From a virus, in the UHGV virus genome UHGV-0245401: a stretch of DNA of 29,189 bases; one strand, 5' to 3'. Positions 1,611 through 29,189 of this stretch are shown in pieces (the first letter of the stretch is position 1; every line of letters begins with the position of its first letter). The notes below the pieces were generated by a model. The model worked only from the letters and a program-made list of their open reading frames with translations, did not search any database and was not told where the DNA came from. A program made the translations under genes and the position numbers.

Positions 1611-1829
1611 ATGTTTCATTGTCCTTTATGCCAGCATGCCGCACATGCGCGTACAAGTCGCTATATCACTGACACGACAAAAGAGCGTTATCACCAGTGC
1701 CAGAACGTGAATTGCAGCGCCACGTTCATCACTTATGAGTCGGTACAGCGATACATCGTGAAGCCGGGAGAAGTCCACGCCGTAAAACCGCACCCGTTGC
1801 CGTCAGGGCAGCAAATTATGTGGATGTAA
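1611..1829 (+). CDS. ogr: Ogr, zinc-finger activator of late transcription (72 aa)
   Basis: MFHCPLCQHAAHARTSRYITDTTKERYHQCQNVNCSATF… with a C-x2-C…C-x4-C zinc-finger pattern and the 72-aa length of P2 Ogr. The longer upstream ATG at 1479 was rejected. Confidence 0.9.
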   Translation: MFHCPLCQHAAHARTSRYITDTTKERYHQCQNVNCSATFITYESVQRYIVKPGEVHAVKPHPLPSGQQIMWM

Positions 1830-1840
1830 TTACAAACAGA

Positions 1841-1870
1841 AAGCCCCTCAGTCGAGGGGCTTTCTGTTTT
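1841..1870 (+). terminator. Intrinsic terminator after ogr
   Basis: GC-rich hairpin GCCCCTC-agtc-GAGGGGC followed by TTTCTGTTTT. Confidence 0.7.
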
Positions 1871-1969
1871 GGGGAATATTCTTCATTAAAAGTAGTGGAT
1901 CACGTTTAATAAACTATGTTTATCATATACTTAAAAGTCAATCTTTAAAGTTGGACAGGTTGGTGGAAA

Positions 1970-2611
1970 ATGGAAAAAGTTATAATTGAGCTTGATAATC
2001 GTTGGGAGTTAGCTGATTTCGCGGTCTTAACGAAAGAGTATTTGCAGCTATATGGTTTTTTTTATGGCCTAAAAGGAGGATCAAGAGGATATTCAACAAT
2101 GCCTTGGGAGGGTGGGCACAGTGTGGTGAACTTTTTTAGAGGGGCTTACAGTGCGACTCCACCAGATTTACGTCCTGTAGTGAAAAAAATTCAGTATGCC
2201 TCTCCTGGCTTTATTGAATTGTCTGCTCTTATTGATATCTCTTGGCAGATTGCTGAGTTAGTTACTGCTGTTGGTGGAAGTATTCTGGCTGCCAACAAAG
2301 TTTACGATCAGGTGATGCGTACATATCGACAAAGAGAATGGGCAAAGTTGAAATCAGAGAAGCTGCGTATACAGAATCAAATTAAAGAGATTGAACTTGT
2401 TTCTGACGCAGTTAAATCACTTGAATCTGTGATGGCACTTAGTGAAGAACAACGTAAAAACTTGGTTCAACTATCGGGGGCAGATGAACTGGTTCAGTTA
2501 AAGATACTTTTGGCTGTTTACCGACGGTTATCTCCTCTTGTTGAGTTGCAAAACAGCGGGAAAGCTAATTTTTCTGCTGGGAAAAATAAAAATTTAAAAG
2601 CGTCCGATTAA
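1970..2611 (+). CDS. Hypothetical 213-aa protein of unknown function, an AT-rich moron between ogr and attP
   Basis: Uninterrupted 213-codon ORF in a visibly AT-rich island. GGTGG Shine-Dalgarno-like motif about 7 nt upstream of the ATG, with TATACT (-10-like) at 1926-1931. The C-terminal half is rich in K/E/L/Q heptad-like sequence and there is a hydrophobic stretch around aa 80-110. No family recognised. Confidence 0.65.
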   Translation: MEKVIIELDNRWELADFAVLTKEYLQLYGFFYGLKGGSRGYSTMPWEGGHSVVNFFRGAYSATPPDLRPVVKKIQYASPGFIELSALIDISWQIAELVTAVGGSILAANKVYDQVMRTYRQREWAKLKSEKLRIQNQIKEIELVSDAVKSLESVMALSEEQRKNLVQLSGADELVQLKILLAVYRRLSPLVELQNSGKANFSAGKNKNLKASD

Positions 2612-2619
2612 ACGGACGC

Positions 2620-2856
2620 TGAACGATGTGGACGCTATGTGGACAGCGGTTGACATAAATCCATTTATATCATCAGGTTAGGTGCTTTTTTGTGACACCA
2701 TCCCTGTCTTCCCCCACATGATGTGGGGGTTTTTTTTATCAATTACTTACATGCAATCAAAAGTAAAAACAGGTACTTATCGAAAGCTGTAAGGGTTTGG
2801 AGCGGTTTCAAAATTTCTTGAGTGTGGACACTATGTGGACACTCAGAGGGGGAAAT
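2620..2856. other. Putative attP region with integrase arm-type repeats (TGTGGAC-N4-TGTGGACA at 2627-2645 and 2823-2841)
   Basis: Two tandem TGTGGACA-type direct repeats flank about 170 bp directly downstream of the int 3' end. They resemble the arm-type Int sites I recall for P2, but the P2 core sequence itself is not present. Confidence 0.5.
2709..2738 (+). terminator. Hairpin plus T-run (CCCCCACAT-g-ATGTGGGGG-TTTTTTTT); terminator-like, possibly part of the att core
   Basis: Perfect 9-bp inverted repeat followed by eight T residues on the + strand. Confidence 0.5.
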
Positions 2857-3867
2857 TTATAACGTCACTCCGCCTTTTAGTGGATTCAGAGCGACGGCAT
2901 TTTGCAGATAGTCAGGCGCAAGGTGCGCATAGGCCATCGTCTGCTGAATGCTCGCATGTCCCAGAATCTGTTGCAGTGCGATTATATTGCCCCCATTCAT
3001 CATGAAATGGCTTGCGAATGTATGCCGCAGGATATGGGTTGCCTGATTGGGTGGTATATCAGGTTTCACTCTGCGTAAAATCCCGCAAAATTTCTCATAA
3101 TCAACTTTGAATAATTTGGCGCTGGCCTCCTCTTTAACTTTTTTCTCCAGTTCCTCAGAAATCGGCACGGTTCGCTTTTTACCGTTTTTGGTTTTCAGGA
3201 AGGTAACCCTGCAATTTGTAATCTGTGCTGGTTTTAGCGTGGCAACTTCCGTCCATCTTCCTCCAGTGCTCAGACATAAAAGCGCGACAAGTAAGTCATC
3301 ACCAGCCAAAACATTTAACAGTTTTTCGATTTCTGCTTTTTCCAGGAACGTCATTTCAGGGTTGGCCTCCGCCAGTGGCGGCAGTCCGTGAATTGGGTGT
3401 TGCCCGGAAAATTCATCCAATTGAATTAATTTTGTGAACATGCCGGATAATCGGTACATGTCACGGTTTATCGTTGCGGCACTGATACCATCACGTAGTC
3501 GCATGGAACGATAATCCATCAAAGCCCTTTTGCTCATCCTGTTCACTGGTATATCACCTATGCCGCTGATGGTTTTGAGTAGATGATTAAACTCTTTTGT
3601 TCCATGCTCGTGGTTTTGCCCGTGATATTTCCACCAGATGTCCAGCAACTCACTCAAAGTCCGGCGGTCTGCTCGCTGGCCTCCCCATTCTTTCTGACTG
3701 GCATTGGCGATTGTGTATCGCTCAAATGCTAGTGCTTCAGCTTTTCTTTCGAATTTCCTGCGGATGCGTTTTCCGTCGCGACCGCGAGGTCTAATGTCCA
3801 CTTCATAGCGACCATCATCGAGCTTCTTAATTGCCATAAGAAAGCCCTCCGGCGCTGTATTCACCAT
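2857..3867 (-). CDS. int: Tyrosine integrase (336 aa)
   Basis: C-terminal catalytic region …ATHILRHTFASHFMMNGGNIIALQQILGHASIQQTMAYAHLAPDY… is typical of the tyrosine-recombinase R-H-R-Y fold. Position between attP and repressor C matches P2. Confidence 0.92.
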   Translation of the reverse strand: MVNTAPEGFLMAIKKLDDGRYEVDIRPRGRDGKRIRRKFERKAEALAFERYTIANASQKEWGGQRADRRTLSELLDIWWKYHGQNHEHGTKEFNHLLKTISGIGDIPVNRMSKRALMDYRSMRLRDGISAATINRDMYRLSGMFTKLIQLDEFSGQHPIHGLPPLAEANPEMTFLEKAEIEKLLNVLAGDDLLVALLCLSTGGRWTEVATLKPAQITNCRVTFLKTKNGKKRTVPISEELEKKVKEEASAKLFKVDYEKFCGILRRVKPDIPPNQATHILRHTFASHFMMNGGNIIALQQILGHASIQQTMAYAHLAPDYLQNAVALNPLKGGVTL

Positions 3868-3906: not shown

Positions 3907-4200
3907 TTATCCAATCCTTTTCTCGGAGTGGTTGGACTCTGTTGACTCTGGCCCAATGTGCGCGAGAGCCGGTGCGATTTGTCCTGCGTCCGGCGCGGTT
4001 TTATCTGTCATAAGCCATAAAGCATATTTTTGGAATGTGGGATGCATAGTGATTTTTAGCAAAGCTGTGCCACCGGGTTCAAAGTTTCCTCCTTCATATT
4101 TTTTAAGTGTGCTTAGCGGTAACTCTATGATTTCACAGAATTTTGATTGGCTTAGCCCTTCAGCCTCACGCAAGGCCTTAATCTTTTCGCTTAATTTCAT
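3907..4200 (-). CDS. C: Immunity repressor C (97 aa)
   Basis: Small ORF immediately upstream of int on the same strand and divergent from cox. Sequence (…GQIAPALAH…) and position resemble P2 C. Confidence 0.8.
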   Translation of the reverse strand: MKLSEKIKALREAEGLSQSKFCEIIELPLSTLKKYEGGNFEPGGTALLKITMHPTFQKYALWLMTDKTAPDAGQIAPALAHIGPESTESNHSEKRIG

Positions 4201-4321: not shown

Positions 4322-4609
4322 ATGAGGGTACCATATATGGACGCTGAAAATTATGTGATTCAGTATCCGCTTGATGCGGTTCATGTGGATAAATTTGCTG
4401 ATTTATTAGGGAAGCCAAAGACAGCCGTCAGTGAAATGGTGAAGGCAAATAAATTACCAATTATTGAATTGCGTGATCCTTGCAAACCGAAGGCTCGTGC
4501 CGGTGAAAAATGGGTTTTCATTCCTGAGTTTAATCGCGCTGTACGTGAGGCGTTTTATAACCGACCGGTTGAACAGCGTGATGCATGGCTTTTGTGGATG
4601 GGGTTGTGA
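4322..4609 (+). CDS. cox: Cox-like excisionase and early-operon regulator (alternative start at 4337)
   Basis: First gene of the rightward operon, about 90-95 aa, with a C-terminal …RDAWLLWMGL like P2 Cox. Confidence 0.75.
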   Translation: MRVPYMDAENYVIQYPLDAVHVDKFADLLGKPKTAVSEMVKANKLPIIELRDPCKPKARAGEKWVFIPEFNRAVREAFYNRPVEQRDAWLLWMGL

Positions 4610-8631: not shown

Positions 8632-8846
8632 GTAAAAACACAACGTGATTTGATATGGCATTGAATGGCTTATGCGGAGCAGTTATGGGGCAGCAGAAGG
8701 TCAATAGCATGCTGAATTAGAAGGCTAAATGCTATTGAGTGACTAGCATGTCGGTAAGGACAGCCGTTTGATCCGGGTCATAAAAGGCCATCCATTTAGT
8801 CTAATAAAATCATTGCGGGTAACCTTATGTCGACGCATAATTCGTC

Positions 8847-8861
8847 TTGAGCGAAGTCTTG
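8847..8861 (+). repeat. 15-bp direct repeat TTGAGCGAAGTCTTG, copy 1 of 2
   Basis: Exact 15-mer also found at 9111-9125. Confidence 0.6.
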
Positions 8862-8890
8862 TCAGTCTTTCATCGTATTGATGATGGGCG

Positions 8891-8922
8891 CAAAAAAACC
8901 ACCCTGGCAGGTGGTTTTTTTG
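8891..8922. terminator. Bidirectional intrinsic terminator (A7-hairpin-T7)
   Basis: AAAAAAACCACCCTGGCAGGTGGTTTTTTT: a GC stem flanked by an A-run and a T-run, able to terminate gene A on + and the small ORF on -. Confidence 0.65.
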
Positions 8923-8933
8923 TTTGAAGCATA

Positions 8934-9047
8934 TTAAAGCATAATGCTGACATTGATATTACTGACGTTTACTGACAAACCACTCGGACTACCGTTTGGA
9001 TAGCCAAAGAGGGCCAGAACGAGAATGCAGTAATAGCATTTCTTCAT
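8934..9047 (-). CDS. Small ORF, 37 aa (MKKCYYCILVLALFGYPNGSPSGLSVNVSNINVSIML), with a hydrophobic signal-peptide-like N-terminus
   Basis: Consensus AGGAGG Shine-Dalgarno 4 nt upstream of the ATG on the minus strand, with the bidirectional terminator directly downstream. Sits in the old/tin accessory position. No homolog recognised. Confidence 0.35.
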   Translation of the reverse strand: MKKCYYCILVLALFGYPNGSPSGLSVNVSNINVSIML

Positions 9048-9110
9048 ATTGCCTCCTGTAAGTAGAGGGCAACTTCCACCGGTATATGCGCTTCTTAGGT
9101 GGAATGACTT

Positions 9111-9125
9111 TTGAGCGAAGTCTTG
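9111..9125 (+). repeat. 15-bp direct repeat TTGAGCGAAGTCTTG, copy 2 of 2
   Basis: Exact copy of 8847-8861. Embedded in GACTT-ttgagcg-AAGTC, which has inverted symmetry. Lies about 65-80 nt upstream of the small ORF start. Confidence 0.6.
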
Positions 9126-9525
9126 CCCTGAAATAATGCTCTGTTTAAACGCAAAGTGATTTGGCATATCACCGAACAGAGAGCCGGAAAAACACAACAT
9201 ATAGTATGTCGTTGTTTCTAGGCATACATTCTATGTTGTGTAACAAGGGCTTTGCATTAAACATGTTTGAGATTTTATTGATGTAGCTCAAAGTAAAAAA
9301 CAGAGACTACGGATGATAAGGTCTTGAAAGCAATGTAAATTTTTTAAAGTTGCCAATTGCTTAAAAATGTACAGTTGCGGTATGGCGTACTTAAAAAGCT
9401 ATGCATGCAACAAGTGAATGTTTTTGCATGCGTTGGGGATGTCCGTTCAGGCGGCGTGCGGTCAGGACTGGTGCGGATCCATAGTATCTATGCAACTGCA
9501 TTAAAACCGCCCCGTGAAGCGGGCG

Positions 9526-9544
9526 GGCGAGGCGGGGAAAGCAC
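9526..9544. other. cos: cos, the 19-nt cohesive end sequence GGCGAGGCGGGGAAAGCAC
   Basis: Exact match to the P2 cohesive-end sequence as I recall it. Located just outside the portal gene Q, as in P2. Confidence 0.7.
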
Positions 9545-9685
9545 TGCGCGCTGGCGGTGGTGCTGATTTTATTTTTTCAGCGTCTGAGCGCGTCGTGATG
9601 GCGTTTAGATTGTTCGCCGGGGCGTTGGTGTGTCTGCGGGCTGTTTTGTGCGGTGGTGAGCGTGTGAGGGCGTGATGGCGGGGTG

Positions 9686-9710
9686 TAAAAAAGCCGCCCG
9701 CAGGCGGCGA
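9686..9710 (-). terminator. Terminator-like hairpin after Q on the minus strand
   Basis: On the minus strand, GCCGCC-tgcgg-GCGGC followed by TTTTTTA immediately after the Q stop. Confidence 0.5.
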
Positions 9711-9713
9711 TGT

Positions 9714-22614: not shown

Positions 22615-23057
22615 TGATGAAATATCTGTACGTAAACAACCTGGCATATCCTTACGAACTTCAGTCTCTTTATGTTGAAAAAGGTGAATGGCCTGAAGAA
22701 AAAGGTGTTGATATAGACGAAGTAATTTTCAGGGAATATTTCTATGACACACCACCAGAAGGAAAATACAGATGTGTTGGAGAAGATGGACTGCCTGCAT
22801 GGGCAGATATTCCTCCACCAACACGTGAAGAACAAATTGCATCAGCCGAAACTAAAAAGCAGCAATTGATTAATCAGGCCAACGATTATATGAACAGTAG
22901 ACAATGGGTTGGTAAAGCGGCTATTGGTCGTCTGAAAGGTGAGGAACTGGCGCAATATAATTTGTGGCTGGATTATCTGGACGCACTGGAGCTGGTCGAT
23001 ACTTCCAGTGCACCAGATATTGAATGGCCTACTCCTCCGGCAGTTCAGGCCAGATGA
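22614..23057 (+). CDS. G: Tail fibre assembly chaperone (Tfa, P2 G-like), paired with the currently expressed fibre tip
   Basis: 147 aa with a C-terminal Tfa signature …LWLDYLDALELVDTSSAPDIEWPTPP…. AT-rich 5' half. Confidence 0.85.
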   Translation: MMKYLYVNNLAYPYELQSLYVEKGEWPEEKGVDIDEVIFREYFYDTPPEGKYRCVGEDGLPAWADIPPPTREEQIASAETKKQQLINQANDYMNSRQWVGKAAIGRLKGEELAQYNLWLDYLDALELVDTSSAPDIEWPTPPAVQAR

Positions 23058-23640
23058 CATCCGGCGCGGTGCTGGTATCTGTTGCCGTCACCGCGTCAAT
23101 GTAATCCAGCACCGTGTTAAGTCGGCTGGTTTCTGCCTGCGTCAGATTCCGTCCGGCCCGTAATTTCAGTTGAATCAGACTGATGGAAGCCATTGCAGTA
23201 TCAATCAGCGACTGGCGTTGTGCTTCTGCTGCATCTACTGCGGCGCTATGCTGTGCATCGGTATCCGTCACCCATTTCTCACCATCCCATTTATCGTATG
23301 GTGTTAACGGGGCGATAGTGGTTGTATTATCAGGGTAATCACCCGGAGCTGTGATTTCTTTTGATTCTCCTGTTTCGGTGCTAAAGACGATTTCACCGCG
23401 ATGGTCTGGCACATATTCCCATGAGTTAAAATCTGCAGAACGGCAGATTGCATAACCAGCCTTATGTGTAACTGGTGCATCTAAACAAGAACATGCCGGG
23501 ATACCGACGCCAACCGTAAGATATTCAGTTGATGTGGAAATATATTCCCGCGTTTCTCCGTTGTAGTTGTAAACGGTAATGAAGCCAGCCTCTGTGGCAA
23601 ATCCGTTTTCATCCAAAGTGATTTTTTTTGTGGTCATCAT
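23029..23640 (-). CDS. Alternative tail fibre assembly chaperone (Tfa') on the opposite strand inside the invertible segment
   Basis: 203 aa with a C-terminal Tfa signature …LNTVLDYIDAVTATDTSTAPDVIWPELPEE. Convergent with G and overlapping it by 29 bp. Confidence 0.8.
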   Translation of the reverse strand: MMTTKKITLDENGFATEAGFITVYNYNGETREYISTSTEYLTVGVGIPACSCLDAPVTHKAGYAICRSADFNSWEYVPDHRGEIVFSTETGESKEITAPGDYPDNTTTIAPLTPYDKWDGEKWVTDTDAQHSAAVDAAEAQRQSLIDTAMASISLIQLKLRAGRNLTQAETSRLNTVLDYIDAVTATDTSTAPDVIWPELPEE

Positions 23641-24146
23641 GCTGCCCTTACAATGTAGTTAAATGCAATGTTACGTGGCCTTGTTTCTGCTGATGTTCTT
23701 GCACTCCTGGATAAATCAAGTGTCACACCATAGTAACTAAATGCATTACCAGTTGATGGAGCGGCATATTTAACCCCAGAACTAGAACCAACATTAAAAA
23801 CTCCAGATGCTGAGGAAGCTGACCCCATAGTGTTATCAATCAGAGAACCCGTAACATTTTGCATAGCGTCAAGTTGTTCGCTTAATAAAGCGCGTCCACT
23901 ATCAACATCACGCCCGTCATCCCAGCCACGAATAAATTCACCTCGTAAATCAGGCAATTTATTTGTCGGATAAGCCTTTGCCAGTTCCGGGTATTCTTCA
24001 GCAGAAAAAAACGCACCGTTGCATTTCAGCCAGCCTGTTGGCGGAGTGGTGGAAGGCCACGGAACAGGCACGCCAACGGGTAATGCCGAACCTTCTCCCA
24101 AACCAACGTTTAAGAAAATGCAGAGATTACGGCTAACTGGCATCAT
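23637..24146 (-). CDS. Alternative tail-fibre C-terminal tip (Hv'), promoterless in this orientation
   Basis: …LPDLRGEFIRGWDDGRDVDSGRALL…RPRNIAFNYIVRAA resembles variable tail-fibre tips of Mu/P1-type invertible systems. Its 5' end carries the partner crossover site in the same frame (…GLGE…) as in H. Confidence 0.7.
   Translation of the reverse strand: MMPVSRNLCIFLNVGLGEGSALPVGVPVPWPSTTPPTGWLKCNGAFFSAEEYPELAKAYPTNKLPDLRGEFIRGWDDGRDVDSGRALLSEQLDAMQNVTGSLIDNTMGSASSASGVFNVGSSSGVKYAAPSTGNAFSYYGVTLDLSRSARTSAETRPRNIAFNYIVRAA
24093..24118 (-). other. hix/gix-like inversion crossover site, inverted partner of 22268-22293
   Basis: The minus strand reads TTTTCTTAAACG-TT-GGTTTGGGAGAA. The right half is identical to the site in H and the left half is a degenerate copy. 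Confidence 0.6.
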
Positions 24147-29074: not shown

Positions 29075-29189
29075 ATGATGCTCGCGTTAGGTATGTTTGT
29101 TTTTATGCGCCAGACGCTGCCACACCAGACCATGCAGCGTGAATCAGATTATCGCTGGCCGTCAAATTCCCGTATCGGTAAACGGGATG
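29075..29189 (+). CDS. U: Tail protein gpU, N-terminal part; continues at window position 1
   Basis: GGAGGTGA Shine-Dalgarno, then ATGATG…: MMLALGMFVFMRQTLPHQTMQRESDYRWPSNSRIGKRD, running off the window end in frame with positions 1-365. Confidence 0.85.
   Translation, partial: MMLALGMFVFMRQTLPHQTMQRESDYRWPSNSRIGKRD

Follow-up and report, generated by a model that had tools for sequence, protein, structure and literature searches.

PD-T4-10 was recovered by functional selection from Escherichia coli ECOR65 as two overlapping genes, encoding an antitoxin (A) and a toxin (B) (PMC9519451). B is the toxic component and is neutralised by A; A proved undeletable, and deletion of B abolishes protection against T4 (PMC9519451). 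Vassallo et al. 2022 describe a bona fide toxin–antitoxin system that acts as an abortive-infection defence against T-even phages (PMC9519451). The defence hotspots of phage P2 are tin/old, between genes A and Q, and Z/fun, between genes G and FI (PMC9519451 and its ref. 25), and integrons, both chromosomal and mobile, are reported to hold streamlined single-cassette defence systems, reduced in number of components and in gene length (10.1101/2024.07.02.601686; Kieffer et al., 10.1101/2024.07.02.601719). Here we describe a gene that touches on all three cases. It lies in the UHGV virus genome UHGV-0245401, a stretch of 29,189 nucleotides (nt) that was analysed as a whole and is referred to below as the window, and occupies positions 1970–2611, between ogr, the gene for the late-gene activator, and the attachment site attP. 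Its product of 213 amino acids (aa) is a stand-alone homologue of the C-terminal domain of PD-T4-10B. On the strength of this homology and of the genomic context we read the gene as a streamlined single-gene abortive-infection or exclusion module, a reading to which we assign a probability of about 0.5.

Homology to the C-terminal domain of PD-T4-10B

The sequence-only reading of this DNA had recognised no family for the product. This no longer holds, since the open reading frame (ORF) matches three PADLOC models of PD-T4-10_B: PDLC04024 (E 1.3e-34), PDLC04025 (E 7e-23) and PDLC04026 (E 3e-19). The match is limited to positions 139–346 of the 353 in the profile, corresponding to its C-terminal ~60%. 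Scans of the ORF against Pfam, PHROGs and NCBIfam returned nothing meaningful. A Stenotrophomonas locus (L052) served as the canonical comparator; the original ECOR65 PD-T4-10B was missed by a search with the long form P0196. The 353-aa B protein of the Stenotrophomonas locus matches the PD-T4-10_B model with an E of 2.8e-123, and the ORF is 26% identical to its residues 149–352 (E 8e-18).

A word-based search yielded 118 homologues, nearly all of 205–235 aa, and an exhaustive profile search, run over 1.84 billion representatives, returned 795 cluster representatives at E ≤1e-3 (~800 clusters at 50% identity). Two architectures were apparent among the profile hits: a short form, made up of the domain alone, and a long form of 320–400 aa with an N-terminal extension of ~135 aa. 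Short forms of 205–240 aa account for 204 of the 240 near-full-length domain hits. Long forms match PD-T4-10_B over the full length, and the extension that they carry is the N-terminal part of Pfam DUF6575, a family that matches long forms only. A small overlapping ORF was present upstream in all three long-form genomic loci recovered, and in two of them it corresponds to PADLOC PD-T4-10_A (E 1.6e-43 in L052 and 6e-5 in a second locus, L055).

The short forms as an autonomous clade

The two architectures largely separate in a neighbour-joining tree of 130 domain sequences, in which one clade of 95 leaves contains 92 short forms and the other, of 35 leaves, contains 31 long forms. The start of the window ORF falls exactly at the domain boundary, as it does in ~200 other short forms of 205–240 aa. 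PD-T4-10A is absent from the 148 ORFs that flank short forms, no N-domain homologue was found in short-form loci, and when the neighbours were clustered over ~45 loci no family was common to more than two of them. The short forms make up a large, distinct, conserved and autonomous single-gene clade.

The same holds for the window gene, which stands isolated between a terminator and attP. No qualifying upstream antitoxin ORF of at least 20 aa precedes it, a hidden Markov model (HMM) built from 50 long-form N-domains found no match in the six frames of the window, and tblastn of three PD-T4-10A proteins against the whole window gave a best E of 0.2. A split gene, with the N-domain or A encoded elsewhere, is ruled out by these window-wide HMM and tblastn searches.

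Comparison with six enterobacterial homologues gave a proportion of synonymous differences (pS) of 0.74–0.86, which is saturated, and a proportion of non-synonymous differences (pN) of 0.13–0.39 (pN/pS 0.16–0.53). Since pS is saturated while pN is low, the comparison indicates that the predicted protein is under purifying selection.

Predicted structure and conserved residues

An AlphaFold2 model built on a 43-sequence alignment reached a mean predicted local distance difference test score (pLDDT) of 82 and a predicted template modelling score (pTM) of 0.81. Its elements follow in the order beta1, alpha1, PWxGG loop, alpha2, a beta2–beta3 hairpin bearing the motif IQYASPG, and five packed helices; the helices of the model are 10–24 residues long. 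The model shows the product as a soluble and compact protein of ~210 aa. A profile search against PDB sequences gave chance hits only.

Two structural features had been put forward from the letters alone, and neither survives in the model. The hydrophobic segment at about residues 80–110, taken as a possible membrane segment, has a maximal Kyte-Doolittle mean over 19 residues of 1.35, short of the usual cut-off of 1.6 for a membrane helix, and is placed by the model within the compact fold (helices at 88–128). The C-terminal half, thought to form a long coiled coil, is broken by AlphaFold2 into the five packed helices. By hydropathy and model together, the protein has neither a transmembrane helix nor a long coiled coil.

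With the window protein as reference, the residues invariant in the 43-member alignment are W12, Y24, Y28, G48, G49, S51, Y76-A-S-P-G80, K178 and R185. W12, Y24/Y28 and the motifs PWxGGxSxxNFF, IQYASPGxIEL and LKILLxxYRR occur in both short and long forms, and since these motifs are common to both, the two architectures probably share one biochemical activity. The invariant set consists of aromatic, Gly/Ser and Lys/Arg residues and includes no Asp, Glu or His, which weakly favours ligand or nucleic-acid binding over metal-dependent nuclease chemistry.

The insert between ogr and attP

The part of the window around the cargo gene is laid out as follows.

365–1528: gpD, ahead of ogr in the gene order
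1611–1829, plus strand: ogr, which encodes the late-gene activator and is the last of the core genes before the cargo; this 219-nt ORF matches the annotated ogrK of E. coli prophages
1835–1870, plus strand: intrinsic terminator of ogr, a 15-bp stem with a U run, and left boundary of the insert, from fold energy and insert-free phages
1871–1969, plus strand: AT-rich 5′ region of the cargo gene, with the purine-rich GGTGGAAA at 1962–1969 just before the ATG
1970–2611, plus strand: the 213-aa cargo ORF, a stand-alone short-form homologue of the PD-T4-10B C-terminal domain
2599–2620, strandless: G+C-rich stem-loop with an 8-bp stem over the stop codon, from fold energy and a scan for T runs
2625–2645, plus strand: first pair of integrase (Int) arm-type repeats (TGTGGAC twice) and right boundary of the insert, from alignment with insert-free phages
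2697–2745, plus strand: att core, containing a hairpin (2711–2729) and T8, the host terminator upstream of fieF
2823–2840, plus strand: second pair of Int arm-type repeats, from the repeat positions
2857–3867, minus strand: int (integrase), convergent with the cargo ORF
3907–4200, minus strand: C, downstream in the gene order
4322–4609: cox, from the gene order

The cargo ORF runs from an ATG to a TAA at 2609–2611, and 99 nt of non-coding DNA separate the ogr terminator from its start codon. Alignment with two insert-free P2-like phages, Salmonella phage MET_P1_103_31 and Yersinia phage L-413C, in which nothing separates the hairpin of the ogr terminator from the Int arm repeats CGATGTGGACGCTATGTGGACAG, delimits an insert of ~755 bp that begins just past the ogr terminator (~1867–1871) and ends at 2624. 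The interval 1871–2625 that the sequence-only reading had marked out, from the ogr terminator to the arm repeats, is thus the whole insert, and its proposal that an extra stand-alone ORF sits at a place where P2 carries none is borne out by the alignment with both phages. The lower G+C content that it had reported for the ORF is confirmed as well: 39.9% for the ORF and 38.8% for the insert, against 53.1% for the window and 54.4% for gpD.

The TGTGGAC arm repeats start at 2627, 2638, 2823 and 2834, on either side of the att core, which on its own is found in most E. coli genomes. The crossover lies within 2697–2745, as the window is identical to the attR of E. coli M217 up to 2745 and diverges thereafter. 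Since attP is intact, the window represents the phage form rather than a prophage junction. The window as a whole is a complete P2-like genome, circular or circularly permuted and only 29,189 bp long. Joining its ends (29075–29189 followed by 1–365) yields an intact 159-aa gpU ORF, which starts 15 nt past the tape-measure gene, an arrangement also found in E. coli prophages.

Transcription signals around the ORF

The hairpin of the ogr terminator has a fold energy of -26.9 kcal/mol (z-score -5.9), and since this terminator is strong the ORF needs a promoter of its own. At the other end of the gene, fold z-scores (-3.2 on the plus strand, -4.5 on the minus strand) confirm the stem-loop GCGTCCG-ATTAAA-CGGACGC that had been noticed across the stop codon, which it holds in its loop. 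A T run follows it on the minus strand only, there being no U tract on the plus strand, and for this reason we read the structure mainly as a barrier to antisense transcription from the convergent int: it looks more like a terminator of antisense transcripts than of the ORF. The next good plus-strand terminator in the scan is the att-core hairpin with T8 (2711–2737), which is probably the effective plus-strand terminator of the ORF in the lysogen.

No Rfam family reached its gathering score between positions 1500 and 3000. A sub-threshold match to the small RNA Hrs1 (2671–2737, minus strand; 31.8 bits, the gathering score being 56.4) lies on the att-core terminator hairpin and most likely reflects a generic resemblance between terminators.

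The gene is accessory cargo of P2-like prophages

The insert is absent from 50,697 phage records, in which a DNA search matched the flanks only, and the protein had no tblastn match among the same genomes. The insert turned up in 160 of the 5,426 complete E. coli genomes searched (at ≥99% identity in 159), and 609 show an uninterrupted junction of ogr terminator, arm and core. The P arm, searched as an 80-nt query, was matched in 686 of these genomes, fewer than 609 and 160 together; megablast likely misses diverged arms, and the counts are approximate. With these approximate megablast counts, roughly one fifth of the prophages with the same att specificity carry the cargo gene.

The gene is horizontally acquired accessory cargo. 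Acquisition from elsewhere had been suggested from base composition, and absence from the phage records and patchiness in E. coli now stand beside the low G+C content; the 160 carriers against 609 empty junctions also show that the gene is accessory rather than a core gene present in every relative. By contrast, the idea that the ogr–attP interval might hold diverse cargo was not supported. In E. coli the interval is essentially two-state, either empty or occupied by the ORF, and these junction counts speak against a highly diverse third hotspot in this species. The only other cargo came from Yersinia phages P37 and GMS190, in which a different insert of ~500 bp lies at the same junction; that of P37 (L010, 1880–2287, minus strand) encodes an unrelated 135-aa ORF with its own terminator and without matches in Pfam or PADLOC. 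Nothing was found in the literature on the protein accession or on an ogr–att hotspot.

The order D–ogrK–ORF–attR–fieF was seen in the three E. coli prophages inspected, in which the product is annotated as 'hypothetical protein'. Kosakonia arachidis has a 77%-identical gene at the corresponding place in a P2-like prophage, again adjoining fieF. Downstream of this homologue, a 599-aa sulfatase-family gene lies between an att-core-like sequence and fieF (L013, 5663–7810); it is absent from E. coli and suggests a second insertion at the same attachment site. Insertion sequences target the ogr–att junction in E. coli: in strain M217 IS150 sits between ogrK and the ORF (L009, 4586–5955), and in strain 2018-05-2CC, in a heavily deleted prophage remnant, ISApl1 cuts the 5′ end of the ORF and leaves 170 aa (L062, 1440–3045).

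Genomic contexts of the homologues

The family is spread through Proteobacteria and beyond, and most of its members are chromosomal, in integron cassettes and bacterial islands. Repeats of attC type flank the short form on either side in Vibrio (L006, L030) and Pseudomonas (L016), so each of these homologues constitutes one single-gene integron cassette. Copies at prophage ends occur in Kosakonia, in Pectobacterium and at a further locus (L056), unassigned myovirus-like prophages included. In Pseudomonas sp. GM80 (L014, 5649–6656; the same as L003, 6661–7668), a SIR2-like gene with DUF4917 and a match to PDC-S21, a PADLOC candidate system (E 2.5e-97), starts 28 nt past the short form, and the pair sits in an integrase-bearing element with a primase and a repressor; the two genes may form a defence islet. 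Short forms also adjoin genes for a Shedu C-domain, a Schlafen-like protein and umuC. Among the 148 ORFs that flank short forms, at least 17 differently named PADLOC families score at E ≤1e-5, PifA, AbiV, AbiP, AbiC, QatA, a TIR effector and PD-Lambda-4_A among them, and this company speaks for a defence context.

A defence reading and its alternatives

We propose that the lysogen would make the ORF product and so be shielded, and its prophage with it, against unrelated phages through abortive infection or growth arrest. The effector activity would reside in the conserved domain common to short and long forms, and the N-domain of the long forms together with A would be a regulatory add-on, gained or lost as a unit. 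Since no antitoxin accompanies the gene, we infer that the product would be restrained by intrinsic autoinhibition or by low expression until infection. The defence or abortive-infection role had already been raised by the sequence-only reading from the position of the gene next to att; the homology to PD-T4-10B and the contexts of the homologues now speak for this putative role. A broader claim would be that the ~210-aa domain is a self-sufficient immune effector that works without an antitoxin and has a fold unseen among solved or viral structures, that the family is a widespread single-gene defence system of which PD-T4-10AB is a regulated two-gene elaboration, and that ogr–attP is a third P2 cargo site; taken as a whole, we hold this tentatively and rather doubt it.

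Several observations weigh against a defence role. The homology that, with context, carries it is of ~26% identity, and should the DUF6575 N-domain be the toxic part of PD-T4-10B, the short form would have no effector. A toxin-like domain without an antitoxin requires some other restraint. The fold yields no functional clue, Foldseek against PDB and BFVD having returned nothing at E <0.1. A scan for consensus promoters found no plus-strand site upstream of the ORF and no excess over shuffled sequences, and the upstream regions of the enterobacterial homologues are AT-rich and without conservation, so that no promoter emerged from conservation either. Many neighbours of short forms are housekeeping genes, and the tally of PADLOC families among the 148 flanking ORFs has no matched control.

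The ordinary metabolic or transport genes among these neighbours would suit a gene for lysogenic conversion or fitness that has nothing to do with phage defence, or else a selfish stabilising element. In that case the domain would bind a ligand or nucleic acid of the host and either change the physiology of the host or make loss of the element costly, with no action on infecting phages. The lack of a Pfam, NCBIfam or PHROG match fits such a role, and integron cassettes and prophage ends also hold non-defence cargo. We consider it unlikely, however, as the sole characterised relative is a defence toxin, short forms repeatedly adjoin defence genes, and it is not obvious how an addiction module of one protein would work. 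Being phage-borne and homologous to part of a host immune toxin, without its regulatory half and with its interaction motifs retained, the product could alternatively be an anti-defence decoy, a copy of the toxin C-domain that co-assembles with, or titrates, the partner or trigger of host PD-T4-10-type systems as a dominant-negative mimic. This is improbable: tblastn found no homologue among the 50,697 phage genomes, most family members are chromosomal, in bacterial integron cassettes and islands, the position of the gene, at the end of the prophage and past a strong terminator, is outside any early operon, and the short forms are an old and diverse clade rather than recent captures of host long forms.

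Two further explanations are met by the structural and evolutionary data. The moderately hydrophobic residues 80–110 and the K/E/Q/L-rich C-terminal half would be in keeping with a membrane-anchored coiled-coil exclusion protein that blocks DNA entry at the envelope in the manner of Sie/Imm-type proteins. Such a protein is very improbable given the maximal 19-residue hydropathy (1.35, below 1.6), the lack of a signal peptide, the D, E and Q residues within the stretch and the charged residues there in homologues, and a single compact globular fold (pTM 0.81) with packed helices of 10–24 residues. That only the C-terminal 60% of the PD-T4-10_B profile is matched and that no A gene is present might instead point to a decaying, functionless PD-T4-10B fragment whose 5′ half and antitoxin have been lost. 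This view is effectively refuted, as the ORF starts at the domain boundary like ~200 other short forms, these form a distinct clade, purifying selection is strong, 159 E. coli genomes carry the insert at ≥99% identity, and no remnant of the N-domain is present in any frame. The pseudogene hypothesis as such is ruled out by the short-form clade and purifying selection.

If the short form does defend alone, as the abortive-infection or exclusion reading proposes, it would be a compact and widely distributed one-gene system that callers looking for A plus B miss. It would also reveal which half of PD-T4-10B is the effector, suggest that the DUF6575 domain and A are a detachable regulatory unit, and make ogr–attP another cargo site to inspect in P2-like prophages, which a large share of E. 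coli carries. With carriers making up ~3% of complete E. coli genomes, among them strains recorded as ST131 and ST167, this exact gene could affect host range in phage therapy.

Comparison with known systems

Like the cargo of the known P2 hotspots, the ORF is a low-G+C accessory gene, variable among collinear prophages and with a plausible role in defence. Unlike them, it occupies a third position, ogr–attP at the right end of the prophage, outside the A–Q and G–FI intervals. The tin/old site of the window (from A to the portal gene Q, 8632–9713) spans ~1.1 kb of lower G+C content (0.44–0.47) and has ORFs of 88 aa at most. The site therefore looks empty or decayed, leaving the ogr–attP ORF as the only obvious defence-type cargo in this phage. 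The Z/fun site (from G to the sheath gene FI, 23029–24146, minus strand) contains an inverted tail-fibre C-terminus of 169 aa with a Collar domain and a second tail-fibre assembly gene of 203 aa, with no invertase ORF visible nearby; this content looks like an alternative-fibre inversion cassette.

The Vibrio and Pseudomonas homologues resemble the defence systems of integron cassettes in that they, too, are single-gene, reduced versions of a multi-gene system, whereas the window copy is prophage cargo and no cassette. PD-T4-10 is not mentioned in the main text of Darracq et al. (10.1101/2024.07.02.601686).

The closest comparison is with PD-T4-10 itself. The whole 213-aa ORF is homologous to the C-terminal ~205 residues of B and keeps its signature motifs, and both genes occur on mobile elements and in E. 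coli. The ORF differs in having neither the ~135-aa DUF6575-like N-domain of B nor an A antitoxin gene, and in belonging to a separate clade. Since the N-domain and A are both defining features, were both looked for and are both missing, the gene falls outside PD-T4-10 as defined; the PADLOC system rule presumably needs both A and B, leaving the locus uncalled as PD-T4-10. By analogy, the ORF most plausibly works like the toxin half of PD-T4-10.

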